From positions 1 through 43,680 of the IMG/VR virus record IMGVR_UViG_3300017694_000006: DNA of 43,680 bases; one strand, 5' to 3'. The notes under the pieces were generated by a model. The model searched no databases. It was given only the letters and a program-made list of their open reading frames with translations, and had not been told where the DNA came from. Below are positions 1,601 to 23,772 of the stretch, one piece after another. Source of the DNA: a virus. The stretch's first letter is position 1, and every line of letters begins with the position of its first letter. A program made the translations under genes and the position numbers.

Positions 1601-1619
1601 CCCACCCCCGAGGGTGGGT
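1600..1619 (+). other. Perfect hairpin ACCCACCC-CCGA-GGGTGGGT abutting the stop codon of the last gene
   Basis: 8-bp perfect stem and 4-nt loop read from sequence. Followed by gataatt rather than a U-run. Confidence 0.6.
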
Positions 1620-1626
1620 GATAATT
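1604..1626 (-). promoter_or_regulatory. Family-B (T3-like) promoter motif in reverse orientation: AATTATCACCCACCCTCGGGGGT on the - strand
   Basis: Reverse complement of 1604-1626 matches the copy at 10868 at 20 of 23 positions and the copy at 23750 at 19 of 23. Confidence 0.45.
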
Positions 1627-1793
1627 CGACCTCGTCACTTTCACTGCAAAAATCCGAGGCGGGATAGCGCACAGCGCAAGCTGGCGGTTCCCCCCGTGGG
1701 GGTGCCCTGCCGGGGATCGTCCCTAGCCCGCCGCGCTTTCCGCCTGTCCTGAGGGCATCCCTCGGTCACCCTTGGCGCGATCCGGCGCACCCT

Positions 1794-1816
1794 TTGACGG
1801 CACCCCCTGCTAATCG
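1794..1816 (+). promoter_or_regulatory. Weak candidate host promoter TTGACG-N9-GCTAATCG (alphaproteobacterial sigma-70 style)
   Basis: Pattern resembles the Caulobacter-type TTGACGS-N10-14-GCTANAWC consensus, but the spacing is short. Confidence 0.2.
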
Positions 1817-1925
1817 GCTAGTTCGATGGCACCCTGTGGGCCATAGCGTGCCATCTGAGGGCAGGCGAGGGGTCCTGAGGGCCTGCCCGTGGGCTGCCGT
1901 TGGTTCGGGCGTGTCTCTGCTATGC

Positions 1926-1937
1926 CCTGCGTTTTTC
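1926..1937 (+). repeat. 12-nt direct repeat CCTGCGTTTTTC, copy 1
   Basis: Identical 12-mer at 2136-2147. Both are preceded by ATG(C/G)(C/G). Confidence 0.6.
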
Positions 1938-2098
1938 GATCCAGCTCTTCAGCGTCCCTCGGGTACCCTGCGGCTATCCTTCGAGGTCCTGGGGTGATCC
2001 TGCAGTGCCTACTATCCTGAGGATGCCCTACAGTGCCCTGCGGACCACCTTAGGACTCGCTGCGGCGCTCCTGAGTGGGTCAGTGCGGGCGGGGCTTG

Positions 2099-2120
2099 GA
2101 AGGACTCTGAGGGGCTCCTA
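2099..2120 (+). repeat. Direct repeat copy 2, GAAGGACTCTGAGGGGCTCCTA (partner at 1269-1291)
   Basis: See 1269-1291. Confidence 0.7.
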
Positions 2121-2135
2121 CGGGCTCCTAATGGG

Positions 2136-2147
2136 CCTGCGTTTTTC
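2136..2147 (+). repeat. 12-nt direct repeat CCTGCGTTTTTC, copy 2
   Basis: Identical to 1926-1937. Confidence 0.6.
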
Positions 2148-2185
2148 CTGCCTAGACAGAGGGTAGGACAGGGCCCTGTGAAAAC

Positions 2186-2209
2186 AATAGTTCGAGATAT
2201 CGAACTATT
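2186..2209. repeat. Inverted repeat AATAGTTCGA-GATA-TCGAACTATT (10-bp perfect arms)
   Basis: Read from sequence. The right arm overlaps the first family-A motif by 2 nt and sits just upstream of the TTGACA at 2213. Confidence 0.75.
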
Positions 2210-2225
2210 CCATTGACACGACGAT
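2208..2225 (+). promoter_or_regulatory. Family-A intergenic motif copy TTCCATTGACACGACGAT
   Basis: Matches consensus TTCCATTAACCCGACRAT. Confidence 0.5.
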
Positions 2226-2241
2226 TGACCACGCCTAGATA
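2213..2241 (+). promoter_or_regulatory. Candidate host sigma-70 early promoter TTGACA-17 nt-TAGATA
   Basis: TTGACA at 2213-2218, a 17-nt spacer and TAGATA at 2236-2241, about 210 nt upstream of the first early gene. The position is analogous to T7 A promoters. Confidence 0.5.
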
Positions 2242-2427
2242 GGGATCACCGGACGGCGAGACACTCTCACCAACCGGGGCCCAGACGGGGAGCGCGCAGG
2301 ACCGCTTCGATCCATCTGGGAGCCATCACCTAGACTGCCCTGAGGGGTTGAAGCGGTGGCGAGGAGATAGCGGGGAAACCCGCCGGTTCCTAGAGGGGCG
2401 CTGAGGCGCTCCTGCAGCAACCGATAG

Positions 2428-2445
2428 TTCCATTAACACGATGAT
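2428..2445 (+). promoter_or_regulatory. Family-A motif copy TTCCATTAACACGATGAT
   Basis: Preceded by GATAG, as in the copies at 6805, 6887 and 8944. Lies 7 nt upstream of the 2452 start codon. Confidence 0.55.
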
Positions 2446-2451
2446 TGGAGA

Positions 2452-2829
2452 ATGACGATGCGCCTTTGGACCTTCGCAACCGCTTCGTTCCTGGTGACCG
2501 CCGATACGGTGCCCGACAGTGACGTTGACACGTCCTATGACGAAACTGGAGAGACCGACGAGAAGCTCGCCAGCGGCGAGTGGGAAGCCTTCGGCACCGT
2601 CGTCAAGGTGGAGACGCATGACGGCGTGGAACTGGGCACTGCAAGCCTATGGGGCTCGATTTACGCCGACCCTCGCGAGTTCCGGGATCACCTGGGCATT
2701 GCTGAGAAGGGCCGGGCCGACGGGTGCAACTACGGAAGCTACTTCTCGGACTTGGTTCGGGAGGCAGTGGGCGAGGCGCGCACGACGCTGGCCACGCTAC
2801 AAGGCCTAAAGGTCCGCACCGCGACCTAA
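2452..2829 (+). CDS. Acidic early protein, first gene after the junction region (position of T7 gene 0.3)
   Basis: 125-aa ORF. GGAG lies at 2447-2450, so ATG 2458 may be the true start. D/E-rich stretch DSDVDTSYDETGETDEKLASGEWE. Confidence 0.6.
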   Translation: MTMRLWTFATASFLVTADTVPDSDVDTSYDETGETDEKLASGEWEAFGTVVKVETHDGVELGTASLWGSIYADPREFRDHLGIAEKGRADGCNYGSYFSDLVREAVGEARTTLATLQGLKVRTAT

Positions 2830-2832
2830 CCC

Positions 2833-2850
2833 TTCCATTAACCCGACAAT
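2833..2850 (+). promoter_or_regulatory. Family-A motif copy TTCCATTAACCCGACAAT
   Basis: Begins 6 nt after the TAA stop codon of the 2452-2829 gene. Confidence 0.6.
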
Positions 2851-2937
2851 CCCAACAGGTCCCATGTCGAGGGGCGGACACGCGCCGCCCTTCATATCGG
2901 CCCTGCCGAAACCCTCAGACAACCTGGAGTGACCCAC

Positions 2938-3264
2938 ATGCGCCAAGCCATCACCACGAAGTACCTGGGGCCGACGAACTCGCGTGGATCGCGGGTTAAG
3001 GCCACCGCCGCAGCAGGCTCCATTACCGATAGCTGGAACCATGCCCAGAACGTCGATGAGAACCACGCCCGTGTTGCCCAGCTGCTCGCTGCTAAGTTTG
3101 GCTGGTCGGGCGTCTGGGTCGCCGGGGGCCTGCCGAATGATCGCGGCAACGTCTTCGTCAGCCTGGAAGGCGAAACCTACGGCGCAGAGCGGCAATCCGC
3201 CGGGCGGGATGACCGCTTGGGGATTGAGGGGCGCGACTGGTTCGGCCTCCGGCCCCGCGCCTAA
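2938..3264 (+). CDS. Hypothetical early protein (MRQAITTKYLGPTNSRGSRVKA...)
   Basis: ORF track 2929..3264. The ATG at 2938 lies 8 nt after GGAG, and third-position GC is high. Confidence 0.6.
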   Translation: MRQAITTKYLGPTNSRGSRVKATAAAGSITDSWNHAQNVDENHARVAQLLAAKFGWSGVWVAGGLPNDRGNVFVSLEGETYGAERQSAGRDDRLGIEGRDWFGLRPRA

Positions 3265-3267
3265 TCC

Positions 3268-3285
3268 TTCCATTAACCCGACAAC
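3268..3285 (+). promoter_or_regulatory. Family-A motif copy TTCCATTAACCCGACAAC
   Basis: Begins 6 nt after the stop codon TAA at 3262-3264. Followed by GGAG and ATG 3300. Confidence 0.6.
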
Positions 3286-3299
3286 CTGGAGTTCACCTC

Positions 3300-3920
3300 A
3301 TGACCCTTTCAGTTTCCCGGAAGACCGACCGCACGAAGATGGCCGCTGCCATCGCCGCCCTGTGCGCTGACCTGGGCGCAACCTGTGAAGTCCGCGACAT
3401 GGCAACCTACCGCTACCCGGACGGCTCCGGCGGCAGCTGCCCTCGCGAGATATGGTGCATCATCAAGCACGGTGCGGTCGAGGTCACGGTCGACCTGGAC
3501 GGCGACAGCGGCCAGCAGCGGGAAGGGACCTGGGTCCTGGCCTGGGTTACTGACATCAACTCGCACGCCCGTTTTGCGTCGCGGTTCGGCAGCGCCGCCG
3601 GGGGCACCGCCAACGGGCGCAAATGCACTGCAGTGACCTACGGGGGGTTTGAGGGCCTGACGGCAGGCCTGCGACGTGCCCTGGAGTGCGTCAACGCGGG
3701 GGAGGCCCTGGGCGAGCCTGCAGCTTACATGGTGCGAGAAGGGGAGGGGTCACACGGTCAAGCGCCGCATGGCTGCTACACGGCTTCGGGCGTGCGGATC
3801 AGTGGCGGCGGGATCGTCCCTCTCTCAGCTGCCGAGTACGCCGCCAAACGTGGCGGGATGCGCCTCATCTCCCGCGAGGAACTCGACGCGATCCTGCAGA
3901 GCCCCGCGCTCGCTGCCTAA
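3300..3920 (+). CDS. Hypothetical early protein
   Basis: 206-aa ORF with an upstream GGAG. No recognisable motif. Confidence 0.6.
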   Translation: MTLSVSRKTDRTKMAAAIAALCADLGATCEVRDMATYRYPDGSGGSCPREIWCIIKHGAVEVTVDLDGDSGQQREGTWVLAWVTDINSHARFASRFGSAAGGTANGRKCTAVTYGGFEGLTAGLRRALECVNAGEALGEPAAYMVREGEGSHGQAPHGCYTASGVRISGGGIVPLSAAEYAAKRGGMRLISREELDAILQSPALAA

Positions 3921-3923
3921 CAC

Positions 3924-3941
3924 TTCCATTAACCCGACAGT
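3924..3941 (+). promoter_or_regulatory. Family-A motif copy TTCCATTAACCCGACAGT
   Basis: Begins 6 nt after the stop codon TAA at 3918-3920. Confidence 0.6.
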
Positions 3942-4028
3942 CTCCAGCGGGGCCCTCGTCGCCCCGCCGGTTTCCCGAGTGCCTCCCGAGCGGGGCCCTC
4001 CGGTAACTGCAAGAGGAGTGAAGTACCA

Positions 4029-4214
4029 ATGATCGCACGAACCGTGCGCCGGGCATCCCTCGGCGTCTTCTTCAGCCTAGGGGTCGCCCAGCTGGCCATC
4101 GAAGGCCTCTCCTGGACCCTCGGCTTCCCCATCACATCCTGCGCGTCCTGCGGGATCATCATGCTGGCCGCGCTCATAGGGGCGCTGGTCGGCGCTGCGT
4201 TCGAGGAGGTCTAG
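4029..4214 (+). CDS. Small membrane protein with two predicted TM segments
   Basis: 61 aa. Hydrophobic stretches LGVFFSLGVAQLAI and IIMLAALIGALVGAAF. AGAGGAG lies upstream. Confidence 0.55.
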   Translation: MIARTVRRASLGVFFSLGVAQLAIEGLSWTLGFPITSCASCGIIMLAALIGALVGAAFEEV

Positions 4215-4216
4215 CC

Positions 4217-4570
4217 ATGCCAGAGCGCAAACGAAACCAGCTCATCGCCCGCACCGCAGCGACCATCACGATTGCCCTTAGGCGCGTGTGGGCACCCCAA
4301 GGCGGCAACGCCAGCGGCGTGGAGGTCGGCGTCATCCTGACGGAGGTATTCTACACCGCCAACCCCTGGGTCACTGCCCAGTACGTCACCGACCGACTTG
4401 CGGGGGTCTATTCCACGGACACCGTCCGCCGCCGACTCGAAGAGATGGTCGACGCTCAAACCGTCGAGCTGATCGAGACAGGAGGGCGCAAGCTCTACAG
4501 GGCAGGGCCGGGGGCTGCTGGTGCCACTGTCGAAGCGTTCCTAGACGGGTGCGCAACGCTCAATGTCTGA
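4217..4570 (+). CDS. Putative winged-helix DNA-binding protein
   Basis: 117 aa. The C-terminal part TVRRRLEEMVDAQTVELIETGGRKLYR looks like a wHTH recognition helix plus wing. Confidence 0.45.
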   Translation: MPERKRNQLIARTAATITIALRRVWAPQGGNASGVEVGVILTEVFYTANPWVTAQYVTDRLAGVYSTDTVRRRLEEMVDAQTVELIETGGRKLYRAGPGAAGATVEAFLDGCATLNV

Positions 4571-4690
4571 ACGCCGCAAATCCACGCCAACGCCGCAATT
4601 TGCGTCCGAACTATTCCAAACTCGGAACCATCGGTCTAACGGGAAGACCGCTAGAAGATGAGAACGGAATAAGAACATTTCACTTGCAAT

Positions 4691-4706
4691 GTAGGACTTT
4701 TCCTAC
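4691..4706. promoter_or_regulatory. Palindrome GTAGGA-CTTT-TCCTAC in an AT-richer intergenic region. Candidate operator
   Basis: Perfect 6-bp arms read from sequence, upstream of the MarR-like gene. Confidence 0.35.
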
Positions 4707-4846
4707 GATCCATCTGTCTGCTACGCCGGAGGGCACGGGGGGTTTAAAAGCGGGGGACGCTTCGAACCGGAGCCTACGGCAACAATCCGCCGTCTCAATC
4801 ACGGGGCGGTTGAGCTGAGGTCATGACCGTATGCGAGACAATGCCG

Positions 4847-4870
4847 TTGACAAACAATTCGGGCTAACCG
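4847..4870 (+). promoter_or_regulatory. Candidate host promoter TTGACA-N10-GCTAACCG upstream of the MarR-like gene and integrase
   Basis: TTGACA at 4847-4852 and GCTAACCG at 4863-4870. Resembles alphaproteobacterial TTGACGS-N10-14-GCTANAWC. Lies 58 nt upstream of ATG 4928. Confidence 0.4.
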
Positions 4871-4927
4871 AAGTGCGGGGGAGCAGAGTGAACGCCGACA
4901 ATCACATCTCGCGAAAGGAATTACGCA

Positions 4928-5374
4928 ATGCTAGGGACAGCCACCGCTATCGAGAGGCCCCGAGTGACAACGACCACGAAGCAGCAGCGATCCGATCCGC
5001 TAACGCGGCACGTGCGCGACTTCGAAAACTACTCGGCGGCGATGATCGTCCTGGCCGAGAGTGCGCCGGACCGCATGAGCCTGTCGCAGGGGATTTTCTT
5101 TATCCTGACCGCCACTGCCGATCTTGCGGGCAAGGACCCCACGTTCAGCGACATTAAGGAGGCTGTGGGCGACACCGTCAATCGCTCGCTCCACACAACC
5201 TACCGTGTCCTTCTGGAACCCTCGCGGAACTACCCGGATGGCCTTGGTTGGCTCCGCCAGGAACCGAACCCGATGGACGCGCGGCAGAAGTTCCTCCGAC
5301 TGACGCCGAAGGGCAAGTCGGTTCTCAAGGGCATGCTGCACGCCATGAACATCAAGATGGAAGGAGCAAACTGA
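4928..5374 (+). CDS. MarR-family-like winged-helix transcriptional regulator
   Basis: 148 aa. The segment TVNRSLHTTYRVLLE...GLGWLRQEPNPMDARQKFLRLTPKGKSVL has the MarR pattern (recognition helix, wing, D.R...LT.KG). The stop codon overlaps the integrase start. Confidence 0.55.
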   Translation: MLGTATAIERPRVTTTTKQQRSDPLTRHVRDFENYSAAMIVLAESAPDRMSLSQGIFFILTATADLAGKDPTFSDIKEAVGDTVNRSLHTTYRVLLEPSRNYPDGLGWLRQEPNPMDARQKFLRLTPKGKSVLKGMLHAMNIKMEGAN

Positions 5375-6666
5375 TGGCCAAGCTGGGCCAGAAGTCCAAC
5401 GGCATCTACTACCTCGACGTGCAGGTGCCGGATGACGAAGGCGGGCTCAAGCGCAGCCGTGTGAGCTGCAATACCCGCGAGAAGAGAGATGCGGAAGCGC
5501 AGCGCCGCGACTGGATCGCTGGAGTTCACCCACAGCATCCTAGCCGGGGCGGAGTTATCGCGCCTAAGGGTCGCGCAGCTGTCCGCGATACATCCATTAG
5601 CCCGCCGAAGCGGCAAACGGAACTGACGCTTGTCCAGTGGCTCGACATGTGCCTGTCGACGATATGGTCGAACGTGCAGATAAAGGCACACGCCTCCGCA
5701 TGCTCAAATGTGAAGGTCCTGACCGAAATTATCGACAATGACCTACTCCTGGCGGACGTGTCATCAGCACACCTGCAGACCATCGCGGCGGACCTCCGAA
5801 AGCGCGAGTACGCTGAAGGCACCGTCAAGCGGAAGCTGCAGGCCATCGTGGCCGCGCTGAACCACGCGAAGTTGACCGAGGACGCCCAGGGTAAGGCGCT
5901 CTACGTCGGAACGGCGCGCAAGCCCAAGACGGCCAAGGTTCGCCCCCGCGAGCGCGTGTTGAGCCGGGACGAAGAGGTGGACGTGTTCAAGTGCCTAGAC
6001 GCGCGCATAGAGGCCGAGCCGGGCCGTCCGTGGCTGAAGTTTAAGATGCTGACTCTGGTCATGCTCGACACCGGGTTCCGCCTGGGCGAGGCGCTCGCCT
6101 GCGGTGCCCGCAACGTCCGCCGCAAGCGCTGGGTCGATCCCCGTTCGGGCGAGGCGCAGGAGGCCGTGTACCTTCACATCGAGGGCATCCACACGAAGAG
6201 CGGGCTACCGCGCGAGGTGCCCCTCACGGATCGCGTCATCGAGTTACTGCCGCTGCTCAACGCGGGGTCCGCAGGGGGCCGATGGTTCCCCTGGAAGCCC
6301 AAGCAGAGCGGCGCGTGGTATCTGTGGAACAATATCCGCGAGGACCTGTCCAAGATGGGTCACGACGTCTCGGACGTGGTGCAGCACACCTTCCGCCACA
6401 CCTGCGCCACGCGGCTGTGCGAAGGCGGCATGGACTTGGTCTCGCTCCGAGACTGGCTCGGCCACTCGGATATTGCCATCACCGCGCAGAACTACCTGCA
6501 CCTGATGTCCACCCATCTCCACGTCGGTGCAGCGATCCTGAACACCAGCAACGGCTCCAATAATGTGGTGCCACTTCGCAGCTCAAATGGTGCCCAGGGC
6601 GCCATCCCGAATAGTCGTGTTAACGGAAGCGAACGTGACGAGGCTGGTTTGGCACGATCCGCCTAA
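5374..6666 (+). CDS. int: Tyrosine recombinase / phage integrase
   Basis: ATG at 5374 after GGAAGGAG (ATGA overlap with the upstream gene). Catalytic-type motifs FRLGEAL, HTFRHTCATRL and LGHSDIAITAQNYLHL are present. Confidence 0.9.
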   Translation: MAKLGQKSNGIYYLDVQVPDDEGGLKRSRVSCNTREKRDAEAQRRDWIAGVHPQHPSRGGVIAPKGRAAVRDTSISPPKRQTELTLVQWLDMCLSTIWSNVQIKAHASACSNVKVLTEIIDNDLLLADVSSAHLQTIAADLRKREYAEGTVKRKLQAIVAALNHAKLTEDAQGKALYVGTARKPKTAKVRPRERVLSRDEEVDVFKCLDARIEAEPGRPWLKFKMLTLVMLDTGFRLGEALACGARNVRRKRWVDPRSGEAQEAVYLHIEGIHTKSGLPREVPLTDRVIELLPLLNAGSAGGRWFPWKPKQSGAWYLWNNIREDLSKMGHDVSDVVQHTFRHTCATRLCEGGMDLVSLRDWLGHSDIAITAQNYLHLMSTHLHVGAAILNTSNGSNNVVPLRSSNGAQGAIPNSRVNGSERDEAGLARSA

Positions 6667-6745
6667 GCCGCAGTAAACCGCCATTGCGCTAGTTCCGGGC
6701 GCACCAAAGTTTCCGCAGTTACCTGCGGCTTTGAAGTTAAGATGA

Positions 6746-6779
6746 GGGGTGCGCCAAATGGCGCACCCCTTTTTCTTTG
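6746..6779 (+). terminator. Rho-independent terminator downstream of int
   Basis: GGGGTGCGCC-AAAT-GGCGCACCCC (10-bp perfect stem) followed by TTTTTCTTT. Confidence 0.8.
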
Positions 6780-6804
6780 TGCCGGGCACGTTGTGGCACG
6801 GTAG

Positions 6805-6822
6805 TTCCATTAACATGACAAT
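6805..6822 (+). promoter_or_regulatory. Family-A motif copy TTCCATTAACATGACAAT, bracketed by the inverted repeat GGCACG/CGTGCC
   Basis: GGCACG at 6795-6800 and CGTGCC at 6823-6828. A hairpin GGCGACT-TATG-AGTCGCC follows at 6832-6849. Confidence 0.55.
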
Positions 6823-6886
6823 CGTGCCAATGGCGACTTATGAGTCGCCCTTGGGATACCTGCGTCCAACGCACGCGGACCGATAG

Positions 6887-6904
6887 TTCCGTTAGCCCGA
6901 CTAA
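6887..6904 (+). promoter_or_regulatory. Family-A motif copy TTCCGTTAGCCCGACTAA
   Basis: Preceded by CGATAG. Lies 29 nt (start to start) upstream of a family-B motif. Confidence 0.5.
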
Positions 6905-6915
6905 GGGCGCTCATC

Positions 6916-6938
6916 AATTACCACCCACCCTCGGCTCG
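6916..6938 (+). promoter_or_regulatory. Family-B (T3-like) promoter motif AATTACCACCCACCCTCGGCTCG, upstream of the RNAP gene
   Basis: Matches consensus AATTAWCMCCCACCMTCGGNGGA. Confidence 0.55.
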
Positions 6939-7006
6939 GGAAGCTCCTGCAGCCGCTCCTCGGTGCGCGTTCGGCGCACCCAATCCCTGACCAGGAAGGA
7001 ATACCT

Positions 7007-9499
7007 ATGACCGATTTCCGCGCCCAGCTTCGCCGCCAGATCGACCTTGAAGACGAGCAGCGCGCCCTGGGGCAATCCCGCTATCACTCGCGGGCTCTCC
7101 CGTGGAAAGCCGAAGCGGGCAGCATGGATGAGGAGGCCAACCTCCCGCCCGGCACGCACCTCCTCAAGGCAACCGTCAAGCCCGTGGCCGAGGCAATCGA
7201 GGCGTTCCTGTCCGAAGCGTGCGAGCGCAAGGCAGGGCGGCTGCACCGCGCCGTCGACTTCCTCCTCCTCGCTGAGCCCCAGGAGGTTGCCTATCTTGCG
7301 ACTCGGGTGATGGTGAACCTGTGCATGTCGCAGTCCCTGCTGCAGACGGTGGCCATCAAGGTCACCGACGCGCTCATCGAGAACCTGGAGTTCAAGTCGT
7401 TCCGCGAGATGAACCGGAAGGGGTACAAGGGGTTCCTGAAGGCCCAGGAGGCGAGGGGGTCTTACTCGCGCCAGCGCAAGAGCGCCGTCAAGAAGCTCTT
7501 CCAGCACGAAGGCTGCGCCATCAGCGTATCGCCGGAGGAGCGCGTCTCCATCGGCACGAAGTGCATCGAGCTGGTGATCGAGGCCACAGGCTTCTTCGCG
7601 TTAGAGAAGGTGCGCCGCTCCAACGGCTTCGCCTACAGCCTCCGCCCAACCGAGACGCTGCAGGGCTGGTTCGACAACCAGCACGCCCGCTGCTCGCTGC
7701 TCGACCCCATCAACATGCCCATGGTCGTTCGCCCGCGCCGCTGGCGCTCGCCCACCTACGGCGGCTACCTGACCCCCCGCCACGGGAACCGCTTCATCAA
7801 GCAGCGGAACCAAGCGTACCACCAGGAAGCCCGCCACATGGACCTGTCGAAGGTCTATGACAGCGTGAACCACATCCAGGACACGCCCTGGTCGATCAAC
7901 GTCCGCGTGCTGGAGGTGATGGAGCAGGTATGGGCTGACGGGACCTCCCTCGGGGGCCTTCCGCAACGCGAGGATGACCCTATCCCGGCCAAGCCGGAGG
8001 ACATCGACACCAATGAGGCAGCGAAGAACGCCTGGAAGCGGGCGGCTGCCGAGACCTACGAGACCAACGCGGAGCGTCAGTCGGGCCGCATCGCCATGCA
8101 CTCGGGTCTGTGGGTTGCCCGCAGGTTCGCTGACGAGGGCTCCATCTACTACCCCCACGAACTCGACTTCCGTGGGCGGGTCTATCCCATCCCGGTGTTC
8201 GGCCCGTCACCACAGGGCTGCGACTGGCAGAAGTCGCTCCTGCACTTCTCCGAAGGTGTCCCTCTGGGCCTTGAGGGTTTCCGCTGGCTCTGCATCCACG
8301 TCGCCAACCTCTTCGGGGTCGACAAGGTTTCCTTCCGGGAGCGGGAGAAGTGGGTCACGGACAACCTCCCGGCGCTCATGGACAGCGCACAGAACCCCCT
8401 CGACGGTGACAGGTTCTGGACGACCGCAGACAGCCCCTACAGCGCCCTTGCGGCTCTGTTCGAGCTGAACGACTGCGTTCTGATGGATGACCCCACGGCC
8501 TACGTGTCGCGGGTGCCTGTGGCGCTCGACGGGTCCTGCTCGGGCATCCAGCACTTCTCCGCGATGCTGAGGGATGCCGAGGGTGGCGCTGCGGTCAACC
8601 TGCTGCCCTCGGAGTTCCCGCAGGACATCTACATGCGCGCCGCAGGCAAGGCCCAGGTCATTGCCGACGCCACGCCCTTCATCACCTACACGGTGAAGGA
8701 AGGCGGGGAAGAGCATGATGTGACGATCCCGAACCCGTGGATGAACGGGATGGTCAAGCGGGGGATCGCCAAGCGTCCAACCATGACCTTCTGCTACAGC
8801 GCAACCCGCTTCGGCATGGGCGGCATGATCGTGTCGACCTTGAAGGAGATGGACCGAGACAGGGCAGGGAAGGGCGAGGGCCCGTACCTGGGCGGTGCGG
8901 ACAACTATCACTGCGCCATGTGGCTTTCCCACGTCATGTTTAGTTCCATTAGCGAGACTGTTCCGGCTGCCGCCAAGGCGATGGAGTGGCTCCGCGAGGC
9001 GGCGAAGGTGGCGGCGGAGGGCGGCTTGCCGCTGTGGTGGACGACCCCGATGGGCCTTCCAATCCTCCAGGAGTACAAGGCGCAGAAGGGCGAGCGCGTT
9101 GAGGTTCACTGGATGGGCCAGCGGGTTCGCATGATGGTCCAGAAGGAGACTGAGGACCTCGATGGGCGCGCCCAGGCAAATGGCGTCGCTCCGAACTTCG
9201 TCCACTCACTGGACGCAGCGCACCTCCAGGCCGTGGCGCTCCGCTGCCGGGAAGAGGGGATTGGCCACCTCGCCATGATCCACGACAGCTTCGGCACCCA
9301 CGCGGCCAACACCGCGCGGCTGTCAGCGATCCTCAGGGACACCTTCGTGGAGCAATACGAGGGCGATGTCCTGGGGGACTTCCATGCGGAGCTGAAGGAG
9401 CAGCTGGGAGAGGAGTTGGCAGCCAAGCTGCCGGAGCCTCCGAAGTCCGGGAACCTAGACCTGAACCTCATCCGAGGTGCGTCCTACACGTTCGCCTAA
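7007..9499 (+). CDS. Single-subunit DNA-directed RNA polymerase (T7 gene 1-like)
   Basis: 830 aa. Contains VALDGSCSGIQHFSAM, GVAPNFVHSLDAAHL, AMIHDSFGTH and a C-terminal YTFA (T7 ends FAFA). RBS GGAAGGA. Confidence 0.97.
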   Translation: MTDFRAQLRRQIDLEDEQRALGQSRYHSRALPWKAEAGSMDEEANLPPGTHLLKATVKPVAEAIEAFLSEACERKAGRLHRAVDFLLLAEPQEVAYLATRVMVNLCMSQSLLQTVAIKVTDALIENLEFKSFREMNRKGYKGFLKAQEARGSYSRQRKSAVKKLFQHEGCAISVSPEERVSIGTKCIELVIEATGFFALEKVRRSNGFAYSLRPTETLQGWFDNQHARCSLLDPINMPMVVRPRRWRSPTYGGYLTPRHGNRFIKQRNQAYHQEARHMDLSKVYDSVNHIQDTPWSINVRVLEVMEQVWADGTSLGGLPQREDDPIPAKPEDIDTNEAAKNAWKRAAAETYETNAERQSGRIAMHSGLWVARRFADEGSIYYPHELDFRGRVYPIPVFGPSPQGCDWQKSLLHFSEGVPLGLEGFRWLCIHVANLFGVDKVSFREREKWVTDNLPALMDSAQNPLDGDRFWTTADSPYSALAALFELNDCVLMDDPTAYVSRVPVALDGSCSGIQHFSAMLRDAEGGAAVNLLPSEFPQDIYMRAAGKAQVIADATPFITYTVKEGGEEHDVTIPNPWMNGMVKRGIAKRPTMTFCYSATRFGMGGMIVSTLKEMDRDRAGKGEGPYLGGADNYHCAMWLSHVMFSSISETVPAAAKAMEWLREAAKVAAEGGLPLWWTTPMGLPILQEYKAQKGERVEVHWMGQRVRMMVQKETEDLDGRAQANGVAPNFVHSLDAAHLQAVALRCREEGIGHLAMIHDSFGTHAANTARLSAILRDTFVEQYEGDVLGDFHAELKEQLGEELAAKLPEPPKSGNLDLNLIRGASYTFA
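8944..8961 (+). promoter_or_regulatory. Family-A-like motif TTCCATTAGCGAGACTGT inside the RNAP coding sequence
   Basis: TAGTTCCATTAGC shares the extended upstream TAG seen at 2428, 6805 and 6887. It is weaker in the 3' half and may be fortuitous. Confidence 0.25.
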
Positions 9500-9502
9500 T
9501 AC

Positions 9503-9520
9503 TTCCATTAGCCCGACGAT
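9503..9520 (+). promoter_or_regulatory. Family-A motif copy TTCCATTAGCCCGACGAT
   Basis: Begins 6 nt after the RNAP stop codon TAA. Lies 31 nt (start to start) upstream of a family-B motif. Confidence 0.55.
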
Positions 9521-9533
9521 CTCGGGTGCGGGC

Positions 9534-9556
9534 AATTATCCCCCACCATCGGCGGA
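9534..9556 (+). promoter_or_regulatory. Family-B (T3-like) promoter motif AATTATCCCCCACCATCGGCGGA
   Basis: Shares about 40 nt with the copy at 10819, including the downstream GGCGGATGAAACCGC. Confidence 0.65.
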
Positions 9557-10166: not shown

Positions 10167-10819
10167 TGTTCGCCTATCGCACCCCGCGCGTCATCTCGCT
10201 CACCGACATCAAGTTCGACGAGGCGGTCCTATCGACCGACCACTGCGGGCTCTTCAGGGCCCCTCTGCACCTCGCGGCTGCCCTCATGCCCTCCATGGCG
10301 GACCTCATCGCCTCTTGCCCCATCGACGCGGCCTATCGCGCCGACTGGGAGCTAGACGTCAAGGTCCACATGCTGATGCGGGATCAGTACCCCTGCATCC
10401 CTAACTGGCACTGCGACAACGTTCCGCGCACTGATGGGACCCGCTACGACCTCGTCGGCTCCCATGACGGGACGTTCGACTATGGGGCGGGGCGGGACAT
10501 CCCGATGTTCCTTTGGGTGTCCGACGAACCCACTACGGAGTTCCTCGCAGAGGAGCTGCAGGTTCCCGAGACGCCCGGCAGCCACGCCGACGTCGCCTTC
10601 GACATCCAGCAGTGGGCCCCTCGCACCCAGCGCATTCAGGCGAACGCTTGGTATTCGATGGATCAGCGCACGCCCCATCGCGGTCGTGCGGCGGAGCATG
10701 GAGGTTGGCGTGTGTTCGCGCGACTGACCCACAAGTCAATCGCACCGAGCCGCCCGGTTCTGTCGGTGATCCGCAGGCACACACAAGTCTACCTCGAAGC
10801 CGACCACTTCACTTGGTGA
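10166..10819 (+). CDS. Hypothetical protein, possibly with a cupin / 2OG-Fe(II)-oxygenase-like fold
   Basis: 217 aa. Has an HxD candidate (NWHCDN), a distal His-Arg (RTPHRGR) and RVFARL. The fold assignment is a guess. Confidence 0.55.
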   Translation: MFAYRTPRVISLTDIKFDEAVLSTDHCGLFRAPLHLAAALMPSMADLIASCPIDAAYRADWELDVKVHMLMRDQYPCIPNWHCDNVPRTDGTRYDLVGSHDGTFDYGAGRDIPMFLWVSDEPTTEFLAEELQVPETPGSHADVAFDIQQWAPRTQRIQANAWYSMDQRTPHRGRAAEHGGWRVFARLTHKSIAPSRPVLSVIRRHTQVYLEADHFTW

Positions 10820-14621: not shown

Positions 14622-14864
14622 ATGTCCCGCTCAGAAAACAAAGCCGTCCTTGTGGCGAAGCACCTGCGCAAGCACGGCCACATCAGCCAAGGCAGCGCCA
14701 CTCTGGAGTACGGTAACTTCCGCCTCTCCGACGCCATCTTCCGGCTCCGCACCGACGACGATGACCTCATCCCTGAGGGCATGCGGATCATCACGGTGAC
14801 CAAGCGGGACGCCTCGGGTCACCCCTACGGCGAGTACCAGCTGGTGAAGAAGGGCTCGATCTGA
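14622..14864 (+). CDS. Small winged-helix (HTH_39-like) protein
   Basis: 80 aa. AVLVAKHLRKHGHISQGSATLEYGNFRLSDAIFRLR...YQL resembles the phage wHTH family. ATG 6 nt after GGAGAA. Confidence 0.45.
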   Translation: MSRSENKAVLVAKHLRKHGHISQGSATLEYGNFRLSDAIFRLRTDDDDLIPEGMRIITVTKRDASGHPYGEYQLVKKGSI

Positions 14865-16707: not shown

Positions 16708-17314
16708 AAATTGTGCCGACTGTCGGTTCGGGCCTGACTCAATCGAGAGCTGCCAAGCCCGCAGCTGCTTCGCAGACCCACGGTTTCCCGCATGGGAACC
16801 GCAGGAGCCCAAGTGTCTCATCGCCCCTACCGAGACTGCACCACGTTACGTCGACTGCTACCACAATCCCAAGTGGTGCGGATGCTCTCGTTGCTTCGAG
16901 GCACTTCGCCAGCTTCCGACACCGCAACCCGGCATCGGCCACAACGGCGGTCCACCTATCGCGGAATGGGCCGACAGCCCTTCGCTTCCTGACGCTGCTT
17001 CAGCGCGCAACGAGTACCCGATGGCCGATGGCCTTCTGGACTACTTCCCGAACGCTCTGGCTGAGGTCGCGAAGCTCTCGCACTTGGCAACCCAGCAGCA
17101 TCATCCCGATCAGGAAATGCACTGGGACCGCAGAAAGTCCACGGATCACCGCAACAAGATCATCCGGCACCTCGCGGACACCCACACGGTGGACGACAAG
17201 GGCCTCGATCATTGGGCGATGGTCTGCTGGCGGGCCCTGGCTGGCTACCAGGACTACCTCGAACGCAAGCACAGCCTGCCGCCGTCCCGCGCCTCGCGCA
17301 ACCGACCCTTCTGA
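16697..17314 (+). CDS. Cys-rich protein with a DUF5664-like C-terminal domain (dATP/dGTP pyrophosphohydrolase-associated domain)
   Basis: ATG 16697 in the frame of ORF-track 16589..17314. YPMADGLLDYFPNALAEVAKLSHLATQQHHP...W.RRKS...RHL...D..GLDHWAMVCWRALA resembles the recollected DUF5664 pattern. Confidence 0.45.
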   Translation: MTSKNCADCRFGPDSIESCQARSCFADPRFPAWEPQEPKCLIAPTETAPRYVDCYHNPKWCGCSRCFEALRQLPTPQPGIGHNGGPPIAEWADSPSLPDAASARNEYPMADGLLDYFPNALAEVAKLSHLATQQHHPDQEMHWDRRKSTDHRNKIIRHLADTHTVDDKGLDHWAMVCWRALAGYQDYLERKHSLPPSRASRNRPF

Positions 17315-17335
17315 TTAACCCCCACCATCGGAGAA
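17313..17335 (+). promoter_or_regulatory. Family-B (T3-like) promoter motif GATTAACCCCCACCATCGGAGAA
   Basis: Overlaps the upstream stop codon TGA. The predicted +1 G at 17330 makes GGAG the first transcribed bases. Confidence 0.65.
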
Positions 17336-17340
17336 TGAAC

Positions 17341-17640
17341 ATGATCGCACGCATCCGCACCTTCGCTGCCATCCTCGTCGGCTACGCTCTGGCCGCAGCC
17401 GCGACTGTCCTTAGCTACGTTTCGGGCCTCCTCGACCGCCTGCCGGTGTCCATCGACCGAACCGTCGCGGGCCTCGACAAGATCGTCGCCAAGCTGGAGC
17501 GCGCCGAGGCGCAGCATCAGGCACGCATCGACCGCGAAATCGCGTTCCAGGAAGCCAGCTACGCTCGCGAAGACGCCGCCGCATCGGCAGCCGACCGCGC
17601 CGCCCGCGTCCGCGCTCGCATCGCCAAGCTGCTCGACTAA
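17341..17640 (+). CDS. Membrane-anchored coiled-coil protein
   Basis: MIARIRTFAAILVGYALAAAATVLSYV (TM segment) followed by an Ala/Arg/Glu-rich helix. ATG 17341 lies 7 nt after GGAG, and an in-frame ATG at 17335 is an alternative. Confidence 0.5.
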   Translation: MIARIRTFAAILVGYALAAAATVLSYVSGLLDRLPVSIDRTVAGLDKIVAKLERAEAQHQARIDREIAFQEASYAREDAAASAADRAARVRARIAKLLD

Positions 17641-17643
17641 CAC

Positions 17644-17661
17644 TTCCGTTAGCCTGAGCAT
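17644..17661 (+). promoter_or_regulatory. Family-A motif variant TTCCGTTAGCCTGAGCAT
   Basis: Begins 6 nt after the stop codon TAA at 17638-17640. Confidence 0.45.
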
Positions 17662-17671
17662 CAGCATCCAA

Positions 17672-17697
17672 GGGGGTCCTACGGGGCCCCCTTTTTT
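17672..17697 (+). terminator. Rho-independent terminator upstream of the DNA polymerase gene
   Basis: GGGGGTCC-TACG-GGGCCCCC stem (one G-U pair) followed by TTTTTT. Confidence 0.7.
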
Positions 17698-21477: not shown

Positions 21478-21863
21478 CGATCCCCAAGACCTCCTTCAGG
21501 CTCCTAGGGCTCACCCTCGCTGCCCTAGCAGCCATTCTCGTCGCCTACTGGCTCCTCACAGCCCCTGCGCGCTCTCGCAAGGCAACCGCAATCTCCACCG
21601 CAACCGCCGCTTCTGCCTCAGCCTCCAAGGCTGCCGCGCAGGACACCATCAAAATCCTCGTCGAGACCCAAGCGACCCACGGGCGCATCGACGTAGTCAC
21701 TCAAGGAAACCGCGATGCCATTCTCGCCGCTGATGGCGCGACTGAGGCGGTGGGGTCTGGTGTTCACAACGCCGGTCTTCATGCTCTCTGCTTGCGCGAC
21801 ACCTATCGTCTACAACCGGCCTGCCAGCGACTGCTCGACGCTGGTGCCGAAGGTCCTCGTTGA
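21474..21863 (+). CDS. Putative i-spanin (Rz-like, N-terminal TM anchor)
   Basis: FRLLGLTLAALAAILVAYWLL is a TM segment followed by a periplasmic region. An overlapping out-of-frame lipoprotein gene follows. Confidence 0.5.
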   Translation: MTIPKTSFRLLGLTLAALAAILVAYWLLTAPARSRKATAISTATAASASASKAAAQDTIKILVETQATHGRIDVVTQGNRDAILAADGATEAVGSGVHNAGLHALCLRDTYRLQPACQRLLDAGAEGPR

Positions 21864-22062
21864 GGCAACCCTAGGTGCGCCTCTTCCTGCGGACCCTTCT
21901 GCTGGGTCTTGGGTTGTCTTTGGGGACGCCCAGACCGGCCAGCTCGACAAGGCCAACACAGATAAGCGAGCTGCTCACGACATCGTGACGGCCTGTGAAC
22001 TTCGGGACCGTGAGGCCGCTAAGGGGATCAGCAAGCGCCCCTGGTGGGCGGTGTTCGGGTGA
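21715..22062 (+). CDS. Putative o-spanin (Rz1-like outer-membrane lipoprotein)
   Basis: Signal peptide MARLRRWGLVFTTPVFMLSAC with lipobox L-S-A-C. Starts inside the i-spanin gene in another frame, 6 nt after AGGAA. Confidence 0.55.
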   Translation: MPFSPLMARLRRWGLVFTTPVFMLSACATPIVYNRPASDCSTLVPKVLVEATLGAPLPADPSAGSWVVFGDAQTGQLDKANTDKRAAHDIVTACELRDREAAKGISKRPWWAVFG

Positions 22063-22106
22063 AAGCCAGAACCTTCGGTCCATTCTCATGGACCCGCTCC
22101 ACGGAC

Positions 22107-22385
22107 ATGGATCAGACCGTTGTCCTGATGCATCACTTGACGTTCAAGCTAGGGCGCATCCGTCTGGAGTTTAGCTTGCAGACTCAGGCGTCTGTAGATC
22201 GACTCCGCCGCATAGACGCCTATTTGGCGCTCAGAAAGCAGGCGGTCGCTTTGTGGTCTCCACACGCGGTCGAGTGGTTTTTGGAAGATCGTGGCGGAAG
22301 CTTGGAGGAAAACGCGGAGCTGCTTCGGCAGATCATCGACGGAACCCTCTCGAACCCTTGGCCTGACGATCCAGAAGGTGCCTAA
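22107..22385 (+). CDS. Hypothetical protein (92 aa) in a lower-GC3 island
   Basis: ATG 22107 in the frame of ORF-track 22044..22385. The sequence looks protein-like (AVEWFLEDRGGSLEENAELLRQIIDG), and third-position GC is clearly lower than in neighbouring genes. Confidence 0.4.
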   Translation: MDQTVVLMHHLTFKLGRIRLEFSLQTQASVDRLRRIDAYLALRKQAVALWSPHAVEWFLEDRGGSLEENAELLRQIIDGTLSNPWPDDPEGA

Positions 22386-22593
22386 TCCGGTTGCGGCTCG
22401 CGTTGGCGTTCTGAAAGCGACCGATGTCGTTGTCGCCAAGTAGAGCCGTCCAGAACCAGACCAAGGTGTCCCGCTCCACGCCTGCATCGCGCAGGCACCT
22501 CATCGCTTCCAGCACATCCTCGCTTGTCCCGCGCACCTTGCTGGACCGCTCGGCGGCTTCGTCGACGATCCTCAGGGCTTCTTCGGTGTCCAT
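22333..22593 (-). CDS. Hypothetical protein (86 aa), reverse strand
   Basis: ORF track 22333..22593 (-). Helical-looking MDTEEALRIVDEAAERSSKV...EAMRCLRDAGVERDTLVWFWTALLG. The + strand alternative over the same bases is Ser-rich junk. Converges on and overlaps the 22107 gene by 53 nt. Confidence 0.45.
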   Translation of the reverse strand: MDTEEALRIVDEAAERSSKVRGTSEDVLEAMRCLRDAGVERDTLVWFWTALLGDNDIGRFQNANASRNRIRHLLDRQAKGSRGFRR

Positions 22594-22614
22594 GGGTCGC
22601 CTTTAGCGCGCCTG

Positions 22615-22632
22615 GAACATCCAGAGAACATC
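22615..22632. promoter_or_regulatory. Direct repeat GAACATC-N4-GAACATC in the 56-bp divergent intergenic region
   Basis: GAACATC at 22615-22621 and 22626-22632 (11-bp period), between the - strand gene start (22593) and the + strand gene start (22650). Confidence 0.35.
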
Positions 22633-22649
22633 AAATTGGAGAAACACAC

Positions 22650-22922
22650 ATGAGGTTATGCCTTATCGTACTGGCGTTCGTCGCCGGGTTCGCCTTCCTG
22701 ATCTACATCACGCCGCCGCCTGACCCGAACAGTGTTTCGGAGCGCCTTCGCCGGGGCGAGGCTGTCCTGTCGTCAGTAGCACCTGATGGCACCAAGCTGT
22801 GGCACGTCGAGCGTGGCGGTCGGGACATCTACTATTCAACCGGCGGCACTCAAACGACCCGCACTGAGGGCTCCGGCAAGCAGGCCCATACCGTCGACGT
22901 GATTGTCCCGAACGGCGGTTGA
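22650..22922 (+). CDS. Small membrane-anchored protein
   Basis: MRLCLIVLAFVAGFAFLIYI is a TM anchor followed by a soluble domain. ATG 9 nt after GGAGA. In the frame of ORF-track 22524..22922. Confidence 0.55.
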   Translation: MRLCLIVLAFVAGFAFLIYITPPPDPNSVSERLRRGEAVLSSVAPDGTKLWHVERGGRDIYYSTGGTQTTRTEGSGKQAHTVDVIVPNGG

Positions 22923-23731
22923 CCCGCACGCTCCTCATCGACGCTGACATCATCGCCTACAAGGCAGCAGCGTCGAACGAGCAGAACATCGACTGGGGTG
23001 ATGGGGTCGTCTCTCACACCGCCGACTTCGAAGGTGCCAAGCGGCACGCTCGCGAAGCTCTCGATGCGCTCGTTGAACAACTGGACGCGACCGACCTCAT
23101 CATCTGTCTGTCGGACGACTTCAGCAATTGGCGGAAGGACATCTTCCCCGCCTACAAGACCAACCGGGCCGCTACAGTCCGCCCGGAACACCTCTACGAC
23201 ATGAAGGACTGGCTGGCGGAGACCTACCCGACCGACCGCCGGTCCCGCCTGGAAGCCGACGATGTCATGGGCATCCTCTCGACGGAACCCCACAAGGGCG
23301 AGCGGATCATCGTGTCCGCCGACAAGGACATGCAGACCATCCCCGGTCTCCTGTTCAACCCGAACAAGGACAAGTTCGTTCGCACCATCGAGCCTGACGA
23401 AGCGGAGCGGTTCATGCTCTGGCAGGCTATCTGCGGCGACCAGACCGATGGGTATCCAGGGTGCCCCGGCTTCGGCCCCGGTGCCGCCGACAAGCTCCTC
23501 GCTGGCATTGGTCTGGAGAGCTTCGTCCACACGTTTAAGTCGGGGCCCCGCAAGGGAACCGAGGAGACCCGGTGGCGTGAGGTGGACCTTGGTTGCCGAT
23601 GGAAGGCCATCGTGTCCGCCTACGAGAAGGCCGGGCAGGGCGAGGCTGAGGCCATCGTCCAGGTCAACGTCGCCCGCATCCTGAAGGCCGGAGATATGGA
23701 CGGGACCAAGATCATCCCGTGGGCTCCCTAA
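22919..23731 (+). CDS. 5'-3' exonuclease (T7 gp6-like, FEN/PIN fold)
   Basis: TTG start. LLIDADIIAY, NWRKDIFPAYKTNR, LEADDVMG, SADKDMQTIPG and GDQTDGYPGCPGFG parallel T7 gp6 (NWRKELVDPNYKANR, LEGDDVMG, SCDKDFKTIP, GDITDGYSGIAGWG). Confidence 0.9.
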   Translation: MTRTLLIDADIIAYKAAASNEQNIDWGDGVVSHTADFEGAKRHAREALDALVEQLDATDLIICLSDDFSNWRKDIFPAYKTNRAATVRPEHLYDMKDWLAETYPTDRRSRLEADDVMGILSTEPHKGERIIVSADKDMQTIPGLLFNPNKDKFVRTIEPDEAERFMLWQAICGDQTDGYPGCPGFGPGAADKLLAGIGLESFVHTFKSGPRKGTEETRWREVDLGCRWKAIVSAYEKAGQGEAEAIVQVNVARILKAGDMDGTKIIPWAP

Positions 23732-23749
23732 GCCTTTCTCGTTTTCTCG

Positions 23750-23772
23750 AATTAACACCCACCCTCGGAGGA
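23750..23772 (+). promoter_or_regulatory. Family-B (T3-like) promoter motif AATTAACACCCACCCTCGGAGGA. The only such motif ahead of the structural genes
   Basis: The predicted +1 G is at 23767. The transcript would begin with the stem-loop GGAAG-GAAA-CTTCC (23770-23783). Confidence 0.65.

Follow-up and report, generated by a model that had tools for sequence, protein, structure and literature searches.

The silencing of a T7-type lytic programme is an open question, and the models published for the temperate T7-like phages Pasto and LUZ100 are hypotheses without mapped operators. In passages of PMC10134795, Boeckman et al. 2022 is cited for MarR-binding sites that flank a promoter upstream of the RNA polymerase (RNAP) gene in temperate T7-like phages; a repeated LUZ100 box is not discussed in those passages. 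Here, a DNA stretch of 43,680 nucleotides (IMG/VR record IMGVR_UViG_3300017694_000006, hereafter the window), which is the complete, circularly permuted 43.7-kb genome (63% GC) of a temperate T7-like podophage of a sphingomonad-type host, was analysed for two families of conserved motifs, A and B, listed in an earlier note on this DNA. Family B is strongly supported, by sequence comparison, as the cognate promoter set of the encoded T7-type single-subunit RNAP, and we take the assignment as settled, transcript mapping apart. The family A motif, a box of 23 bp, is conserved in the clade independently of the RNAP, and we hold with moderate confidence that it is an operator-type box for a phage regulator of lysogeny or early shutoff, probably MarR-like, which would occlude promoters or block read-through. 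The statement in the earlier note that no such role had been described for a motif of this kind proved too strong, since MarR sites had been proposed (in the passages of PMC10134795 named above) and boxes are visible in the published LUZ100 promoters.

In Pasto, the palindrome TAGTCAC-N6-GTGACTA is found in the spacer and -10 element of the predicted early promoter, in three further copies upstream of the RNAP gene, and once right after the RNAP stop codon, just upstream of a B-like promoter (ATTTCCCCGCACACTAGG). In LUZ100 (L105; related phages and contigs are designated by L numbers), the box CTATCCAC(YRG)CGCA occupies the spacers of P1 and P2, host promoters whose transcription start sites (TSS) are mapped, and recurs in two copies upstream of phi1 and the RNAP gene, in one copy after the RNAP stop codon and upstream of phi2, and in one copy, at 6965, after the gp14 stop codon and upstream of the gene for the single-stranded DNA-binding protein (SSB). 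These LUZ100 positions (376, 577, 3939, 3995, 6689 and 6965) are the same places as those of A copies in the window. The annotation of the LUZ100 record carries no TSS at the boxes outside P1 and P2.

Like Pasto and LUZ100, the window has a module of MarR-like regulator and tyrosine integrase upstream of the RNAP gene, with a phage promoter before that gene and repeated boxes around it, and its boxes, like those of LUZ100, lie on host-type early promoters (P1 and P2 in LUZ100), after the RNAP stop codon and before the SSB gene. Unlike the Pasto and LUZ100 boxes, the window box has a different sequence, is largely asymmetric and strictly oriented, and occurs in many more copies, at nearly every early gene and once inside the RNAP open reading frame (ORF). 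The plan common to the clade, Pasto and LUZ100 suggests an old, conserved switch design. Among other described elements, the PeSL elements of T4-type phages are promoter/stem-loop repeats between variable early genes, with a recognisable sigma-70 early promoter. Like them, family A is a short conserved repeat at the borders of highly variable early cassettes; unlike them, it has neither a -35 element nor a fixed promoter register.

The family A box and its copies

Scanning of the window with the family A consensus given in the earlier note returned eight sites at up to three mismatches, versus 0.03 expected from shuffled sequences. Seven of these are plus-strand copies that had been listed before (2208, 2428, 2833, 3268, 3924, 6805 and 9503), and the eighth, absent from that list, lies on the minus strand (6611-6628). 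The other four listed copies (6887, 8944, 12481 and 17644) are more diverged, yet score 23-26 bits by a position weight matrix (PWM) of the clade, whose training set ranges from 17.5 to 34 bits; those at 8944 and 12481 have orthologous copies in relatives. Conservation was checked in related genomes for both families, and A and B are both kept in the clade.

The box reads (A)TAG-TTCC-AyTAR-nnn-GAC-nAT-C, with the first T of TTCC taken as position 1. In an alignment of 35 copies, information is confined to positions -4 to 19 (A-T-A-s at -4 to -1, followed from position 1 by T-T-C-C-A-y-T-A-R-c-n-n-G-A-c-n-r-T-C); the box is longer than had been described, by 4 nt at its 5' end (ATAG) and by 1 nt at its 3' end (C), and neither flank holds conserved bases in these copies. 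The remark that no conserved sequence stands where a +1 would fall was thereby borne out. Five copies (2833, 3268, 3924, 9503 and 17644) start, as described, 6 nt after the preceding stop codon, counted from the T of TAA (TAA-N3-TTCC). This arrangement arises because the second A of TAA supplies the conserved box A at -4, which is present in 27 of the 35 copies. The copies in the window are the following:

2204-2226, plus strand: A copy in which the TTGACA at box positions 6-11 doubles as the -35 of a predicted early promoter of the host type
2424-2446, plus strand: A copy directly upstream of the first early gene
2829-2851, plus strand: A copy, TAA-N3-TTCC after an early gene
3264-3286, plus strand: A copy, TAA-N3-TTCC; the Shine-Dalgarno of the next gene adjoins
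3920-3942, plus strand: A copy, TAA-N3-TTCC
4854-4876, minus strand: A-like copy (TTCGGTTAGCCCGAATTGT) that occupies the spacer of the promoter-like TTGACA-N17-GAAGTG (4847-4875); the MarR-like gene starts about 55 nt further on
6610-6632, minus strand: A copy in the 3' end of the integrase gene, with lineage-matched reverse copies in L007 and L081
6801-6823, plus strand: A copy upstream of the RNAP gene, bracketed by TGGCACG and CGTGCCA
6883-6905, plus strand: weaker A copy, 9 nt upstream of the B copy at 6916
8940-8962, plus strand: A copy inside the RNAP ORF
9499-9521, plus strand: best-scoring A copy, beginning in the RNAP stop codon and 12 nt upstream of the B copy at 9534
12477-12499, plus strand: A copy of the CTCC type that shares bases with a small ORF's stop codon and with the Shine-Dalgarno of the gp2.5-like SSB gene (ATG at 12506)
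17640-17662, plus strand: A copy found in this genome only, with a strong intrinsic terminator (17670-17693) about 8 nt further on

The start-to-start spacings of 29 nt (6887/6916) and 31 nt (9503/9534) between A and B copies were found to be correct. The reverse-strand copy upstream of marR is also present in L007, the copy at 12477 has orthologues in L009 (11183) and L005 (4331), and analogues of the box after the RNAP stop codon are present in Pasto, LUZ100, Caulobacter phage S2B, 'Mycobacterium phage jiawei' and many metagenomic relatives. The copy inside the RNAP ORF uses codons that are rare in this genome (TTT, AGT and ATT, with 9.8%, 2.6% and 13.9% of their synonymous sets, respectively), is present in eight further contigs, and follows the box type of its own lineage in L005 and L008. 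This copy stands 38 nt upstream of a conserved in-frame ATG (AKAMEWL) preceded by AAGG (window 8981-9499), and an internal start at that Met would yield a 172-residue C-terminal fragment with the specificity loop; such a start may be a coincidence, given that T7 too keeps this Met.

The early genes between the boxes vary among lineages. Genes e1-e4 (2452-4214) have no detectable homologues in L007, L081 or L009, whose replication and structural genes are 60-88% identical, and e5 (4217-4570) recurs in L007 alone. The A boxes mark the edges of these variable early cassettes and could serve as recombination linkers.

Family B and the phage polymerase

With the family B consensus (AATTAACMCCCACCMTCGG), six sites were found at up to three mismatches, versus 0.00 expected. 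All seven copies reported earlier stand at their coordinates, six by the consensus and the seventh, at 6916, as a diverged copy that is syntenic with B copies of relatives:

1604-1626, minus strand: B copy in the right-end non-coding region after terL; reverse B copies lie in the same place in L007 (2331) and L081 (8558)
6916-6938, plus strand: B copy 69 nt upstream of the RNAP start codon, diverging after +2
9534-9556, plus strand: B copy 35 nt past the RNAP stop codon; every relative has a B copy here
10819-10841, plus strand: B copy, first of a tandem pair
10868-10890, plus strand: B copy, second of the tandem pair, overlapping a hairpin
17313-17335, plus strand: B copy with orthologues in L004 (9822), L006 (9542) and L008 (7374)
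23750-23772, plus strand: B copy preceding the structural (late) gene block

All copies except that at the right end are oriented with the genes. At syntenic sites family B is nearly unchanged in every relative (before and after the RNAP gene, at the tandem pair, further downstream, and inverted at the right end), with orthologues upstream of the RNAP gene in L003, L004, L005, L007 and L009 and with the tandem pair, about 1.3 kb downstream of the RNAP gene, kept in L003, L004, L005 and L006/L009. A transcript from the copy at 9534 would begin with GGCGGAUGAAACCGC, a 5' stem-loop, and the +1 GGAG of the copy at 17313 would double as the Shine-Dalgarno for an ATG at 17338.

Alignment of the specificity loop of the window RNAP to that of T7 showed that the equivalents of R746 and R756 are kept, that Q758 is replaced by R, and that N748 is replaced by E. 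Published T7 and T3 contacts predict, for such loop residues, C at -7, -9 and -8 and a T3-like -10/-11, and the family B bases from -11 to -7 agree with this prediction. Among the relatives, base -8 changes with the residue equivalent to 758:

R or K at the 758 equivalent, C at -8: window, L003, L004, L006, L008 and L009
Q at the 758 equivalent (as in T7 and T3), T at -8 (AACCCTCAC): L005
D at the 758 equivalent, G at -8: L010 and L020

In L020 the 746 equivalent is I, and C at -7 is lost. Synteny, 5' GG starts with stem-loops and this co-variation together give strong support to the proposal, made in the earlier note, that B is the promoter of the encoded RNAP. Family B (-17 to +6, with a GG start) would thus be expected to drive the RNAP gene by feedback, the DNA-metabolism genes and the late genes, and the copy at 6916 could provide the positive feedback on the RNAP gene.

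The likeness to the T3 promoter, put earlier at 14 of 19 positions, was recovered in a count by hand against the T3 sequence as quoted in the earlier note. Like class II and III promoters of T3 and T7, family B extends from -17 to +6 and has an AT-rich block at -17 to -13 (AATTA), a C-rich stretch at -11 to -7, CAC at -7 to -5 and a GG start followed by 5' stem-loops, and its copies follow gene 1 and precede the DNA-metabolism and late genes. Unlike them, it has CATC or CCTC at -4 to -1 in place of TAAA or TATA, a copy at the right end of the genome is in reverse orientation, and another lies upstream of the RNAP gene, as phi1 does in LUZ100. At the inverted copy (1604-1626), bases -8 to -1 and the first transcribed bases form the hairpin CCCACCC-TCGG-GGGTGGG. 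This reverse promoter after terL, which is kept in L007 and L081, points back into the late genes; it might give an antisense RNA, have a role in replication or packaging like the T7 end promoters, or act as a terminator hairpin.

The leading idea of the earlier note was that family A serves the same RNAP as a second class of promoters, or as a decoy without initiation. In this genome A holds ATTAACCC, the same as part of B and of the T3 promoter, A and B match at 13 of 16 positions in a hand alignment with a 1-nt gap, and at 23 bp the A box has the length of T7-type promoters. The A-B likeness is missing from most relatives. In A, ATTAAC(CC) is confined to this genome and one related contig (L007/L008), so the shared core proposed earlier did not stand; in other relatives A reads TTCCACTAG or TTCCGTTAG, without ATTAAC, while B keeps AATTAAC, and the overlap is therefore a coincidence. 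Family A does not co-vary with the specificity loop, as B does, and still reads ATAGTTCC(A/G)yT.. in L005, L010 and L020, where loop and B have both changed. In the gapped alignment A has G at -7, where the conserved R746 equivalent expects C, no +1 purine is conserved, and A copies sit upstream of the RNAP gene, in regions that need to be expressed first. By RNAP co-variation, C at -7 and a conserved +1, family A thus falls outside the T7-type promoters, and we consider a role as promoter or decoy for the phage RNAP most improbable.

Readings of the family A box

A sigma-70 early promoter is predicted in the window at 2213-2240 (TTGAC-N17-CTAGAT). An overlap of the A box with the predicted main early promoter is seen in L007, L081 and L200 as well as in the window, in registers that differ and that were anchored by the conserved leader ATCACCGGACGG:

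Window and L081: early -35 (TTGACA) inside the A box
L007: A box positions 13-18 are the early -10
L200: A box positions 7-12 are the early -10

Because these copies lie upstream of the predicted start, A would act in DNA at the early promoter. Sequence past this promoter begins with a leader conserved between lineages (GGATCACCGGACGGCGAGACAC), and about 200 nt without an obvious ORF precede the first early gene (window 2243-2427; L007 2898-3230; L200 from 5657). This early leader, for which Rfam gave no match, could be a structured leader or a small RNA.

Dyad symmetry related to the box was found at several places. In the window, the following element derives from the 5' half of the A box:

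2187-2208: perfect 22-bp palindrome, ATAGTTCGA-GATA-TCGAACTAT, ending 4 nt before the early -35

Its outer arms, ATAGT-N12-ACTAT, reproduce the ordinary box geometry (A at -4 to T at 1, and A at 14 to T at 18). The L109 lineage (RNAP 66% identical) has a near-perfect palindrome, TAGTCCC-AGAGAC-GGGAC(ATA), and distant lineages have palindromes right after the RNAP stop codon (TAGTCCCGCATCCGGGAC, TAGGTTCCACATCTGGAAC and CCATGCAAACATGG). Reverse-strand copies occur in several lineages, in the promoter-like spacer of marR (4854-4872 in the window) and in the 3' end of the integrase gene. The copy inside the RNAP ORF, maintained with rare codons, also speaks for a DNA site, and the A box as a whole is conserved and under functional constraint. 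As in an operator, the boxes overlap promoters, including that of the regulator itself, with the promoters of the window being predicted ones; analogous boxes lie in the Pasto early promoter and at LUZ100 P1 and P2. Among the options offered earlier for family A, an operator for a phage regulator is accordingly favoured, a host-factor site is less likely, and a second promoter class or decoy is not upheld.

As an operator, the A box could be composed of a strong half-site (ATAGTTCC) and a degenerate half-site (..GAC.AT). Boxes for the regulator would then lie on or beside every point of entry for the host RNAP, namely at the early sigma-70 promoter, at the promoter of the regulator, between the early cassettes, before, inside and after the RNAP gene, and before the SSB gene. 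The bound regulator would occlude promoters or block read-through, which would keep the prophage silent, and it might also shut off early transcription in lytic growth.

Alternatively, family A copies could be promoters of the host RNAP with a weak or absent -35, perhaps dependent on an activator, in which AnnnT at -4 to 1 or at 14 to 18 would serve as the -10, so that each early cassette, the RNAP gene and the SSB gene would have a host-driven start of its own. Both AnnnT frames are present in A, where A14 is invariant and T1 nearly so; box positions 13-18 in L007 and 7-12 in L200 coincide with the predicted main early -10; the boxes lie directly upstream of genes on the coding strand; and at the copy before the RNAP gene a sequence resembling a -35 (TTGGCA or GTGGCA) precedes GAnnAT by 18 nt, with TGGCACGAT repeats on either side of the copy as its possible operator. 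Tested as a sigma-70 promoter with -35 and -10 elements at 16-18 bp in a fixed register, A nonetheless shows no conserved -35, and upstream of -5 the 35 copies are devoid of information; the AnnnT frames could still supply a -10-like element by themselves. At position 13, which would be the T at -12 of a -10 hexamer, 32 of the 35 copies have G, and the register to the early promoter varies among lineages. About 13 copies are compact: the ATG of the next gene falls at box positions 22-31, with its Shine-Dalgarno within the 3' half of the box, and transcripts that begin downstream of the second AnnnT frame therefore cannot serve these genes. A strong terminator follows directly after the copy at 17644, an E. 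coli-type promoter scan flagged no A copy, the LUZ100 record gives a TSS for none of its boxes other than those at P1 and P2, and the palindromic versions are left unexplained. We regard such promoters as unlikely.

Little probability is given to action of the box in RNA, as a translational operator or processing site in early and middle 5' untranslated regions, placed like the RNase III sites of T7. Such a role would suit the sense-strand placement of nearly all copies, in the gap that separates a stop codon from the ribosome-binding site after it; in many of them the Shine-Dalgarno shares bases with the 3' half of the box. The spread of copies (between early genes, around gene 1 and at a few middle genes) is that of the T7 RNase III sites, and palindromic variants could form short hairpins. 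On the other hand, the early-promoter copies lie upstream of the predicted start, and those of LUZ100 upstream of the mapped start, and so outside the transcript; copies at marR and the integrase gene are on the reverse strand; and no partner sequence for a long duplex is present. Rfam at the gathering score gave no match, and a permissive search of 1200-7100 gave two matches at chance level (E 0.26 and 0.33), neither of them at A. In predicted folds the box is unpaired, and the sequence downstream folds at -16.3 kcal/mol versus -14.4 +/- 4.3 for random sequence, and RNA structure was rejected as the basis of the motif.

Several known binding sites were likewise rejected. The copy before the RNAP gene resembles a sigma-54 promoter (TGGCACG-N4-TTCC), but the -12 GC is CC, the GG is absent from the other copies, and TGGCACGAT belongs to multiple repeats. 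Compared by eye with their consensus sequences, sigma-28, extracytoplasmic function (ECF) sigma factors (GGAAC, on the opposite strand), sigma-32, alphaproteobacterial LexA (GTTC-N7-GTTC), CtrA, IHF, boxA/nut and ops mismatch the A positions or spacing.

The reader of the box must be a conserved protein or a host factor, because e1-e4 have no homologues in sister lineages in which the box is kept. Two candidate readers are encoded in the window:

4928-5374, plus strand: gene for a MarR-like winged-helix regulator, candidate reader of the A box
14622-14864, plus strand: gene for an HTH_39-like winged-helix protein, between the amidase and primase genes; second, weaker candidate reader

About 10 loci carry the MarR-like recognition helix NRSL-H-TTY; all have TTCC boxes, with an additional TTCG copy in one locus. 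In place of H, the helix has N in L007/L186, the lineage with TTCG boxes, and K in L109, the lineage with TCCC boxes. Pasto and LUZ100, whose hosts are unrelated, have a common S-x-S-R-N helix in their MarR proteins and similar boxes. This helix-to-box pattern favours the MarR-like protein as the reader of A. The product of 14622-14864 matched HTH_39 with an E value of 4e-4, just under the Pfam cut-off, and by tblastn its gene is present in all eight relatives with data at that place, at 39-78% identity; tblastn did not detect Pasto gp023 and LUZ100 gp18, which occupy the same place and are annotated as DNA-binding. Divergent HTH_39 proteins accompany variant boxes in L008 and L109, but L108 combines a helix of the L008 type with a TTCC box, which weakened the case for the HTH_39 protein as the reader; its correlation with the box is poorer than that of the MarR-like protein.

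The box could also be bound by a protein of the sphingomonad host, for instance a nucleoid-associated protein or a global regulator, that the phage exploits. In keeping with this, A is more conserved across the clade than B and is independent of the phage RNAP, the box differs in Caulobacter phage S2B, Pasto and LUZ100, whose hosts differ, and the LUZ100 box CTATCCACA resembles a DnaA box. The form CTATCCAC(A/C/T) is one base off what we take to be the DnaA-box consensus, TTATCCACA. Against a host protein, TTCG and TCCC variants occur in close lineages (RNAP, primase and DNA polymerase 61-74% identical to those of the window), the variants track the residue of the phage MarR-like helix, and the Pasto and LUZ100 boxes are similar despite alpha- and gammaproteobacterial hosts, respectively. 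A pattern scan of 2.9 million viral contigs gave nearly all single chance matches, with multi-copy matches only in relatives of the phage (L010, L020 and L081); the scan thus added relatives and gave no evidence for a host-specific motif. A host factor as the reader is improbable on these grounds.

Other repeats lie close to the A copy upstream of the RNAP gene and the phage attachment site (attP) region:

6649-6660, 6794-6804 and, inverted, 6821-6830: TGGCACGAT-type repeats that bracket the attP region and the A copy at 6805
6779-6789: palindrome GTGCCGGGCAC (GTGCC-N-GGCAC) beside the attP region

By position, the TGGCACGAT repeats and GTGCCGGGCAC are probably arm-type sites of the integrase, or alternatively a MarR operator. 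GTGCCA/TGGCAC repeats are also found between the integrase and RNAP genes in S2B, jiawei and Pasto, and beside the LUZ100 box.

Several points weigh against A as the operator of a MarR-like protein. The geometry of GTGCCA-NN-TGGCAC near attP is closer to that of a classical MarR operator, and MarR could bind this palindrome in place of A, which would then have another reader. MarR-family proteins usually bind palindromes, and A is here essentially asymmetric; in a dyad test of 42 copies, 38% of pairs were complementary versus 37% expected, which is not significant. All A copies but two or three are oriented with the genes, which a symmetric operator does not need, and operators before nearly every early gene are unusual. 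The co-variation of helix and box amounts to two independent contrasts only, the copy inside the RNAP ORF of the L109 (K-type) lineage is a diverged remnant (TAGTTCCAT) that does not follow the box of its own lineage, and the early sigma-70 promoter is known by prediction only. With these points taken into account, an operator remains our favoured reading of A, and we infer that the protein bound is probably the MarR-like regulator and that its effect is probably repressive.

Gene order, integration and meaning for temperate T7-like phages

Besides the regulator gene, the following genes frame the boxes and promoters described above:

14-1234: 3' end of terL
2452-4570: early genes
5374-6666, plus strand: gene for a tyrosine integrase
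7007-9499, plus strand: gene for the T7-type single-subunit RNAP

The RNAP gene is followed on its 3' side by a block for SSB, RusA, an endonuclease, an amidase, a primase-helicase and DNA polymerase, and by the structural genes. Only two strong intrinsic terminators were found in the first 20 kb, one at 6744-6771, after the integrase gene like LUZ100 T4, and one at 17670-17693, directly before the DNA polymerase gene. The non-coding genome-end region (1250-2180, about 930 nt) holds many short repeats, of the types CTCCTGAGG, CCCTGCGG and CCTAGAG, and is probably a terminal-repeat or concatemer-junction region; comparable end repeat arrays are present in S2B (CACACCGGGGGC), jiawei and L007 (GGCAGGG/CACCGGCAG).

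By RNAP, the closest isolated phages are Caulobacter phage S2B and 'Mycobacterium phage jiawei' (52% identity), while the RNAPs of LUZ100 and Pasto are about 36% identical to that of the window. Closer relatives, with RNAP identities of 64-88%, are uncultured and were found in viral, genomic and metagenomic collections. A megablast search of the region against isolated phages gave matches of about 90 bp only, and there is therefore no close cultured relative in that collection. Jiawei (OR464703.1, L002) has its gene order, its MarR/integrase module and 52% RNAP identity in common with S2B and the sphingomonad-type clade, and for this reason its annotated mycobacterial host looks doubtful.

In five relatives (L003, L004, L005, L009 and L010), a complete host tRNA gene (tRNA-Gly or tRNA-Pro) lies upstream of the pre-RNAP region, with its 3' end about 70-130 nt before the A box that precedes the RNAP gene and in the same orientation; one of these tRNA-flanked relatives sits in Novosphingobium lindaniclasticum LE124. 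Because complete host tRNA genes adjoin the pre-RNAP region, the five are integrated prophages. The attP lies between the integrase and RNAP genes, and integration therefore parts the RNAP gene from the early genes, marR and the integrase gene. Integration also sets the RNAP gene directly downstream of the host tRNA gene.

Family B and its RNAP would constitute a new orthogonal polymerase-promoter pair, and the natural pairings of loop residue and base -8 (R/K with C, Q with T, and D with G) would extend the T7 recognition code and may be usable in synthetic biology. For family A, we tentatively propose a wider reading, in which the boxes would be the genome-wide regulon of one small phage protein (MarR-like or HTH_39) that works together with integration at attP, on a plan ancestral to integrase-carrying Autographiviridae with hosts from alpha- to gammaproteobacteria. 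If this is true, the regulon would gate every point of entry for the host RNAP, including the rare-codon site inside the RNAP ORF, and the separation of the RNAP gene from the early genes upon integration would cooperate with it. Independently of this wider reading, family A marks out concrete, testable positions at which the lysogeny regulator of temperate T7-like phages would be expected to bind.

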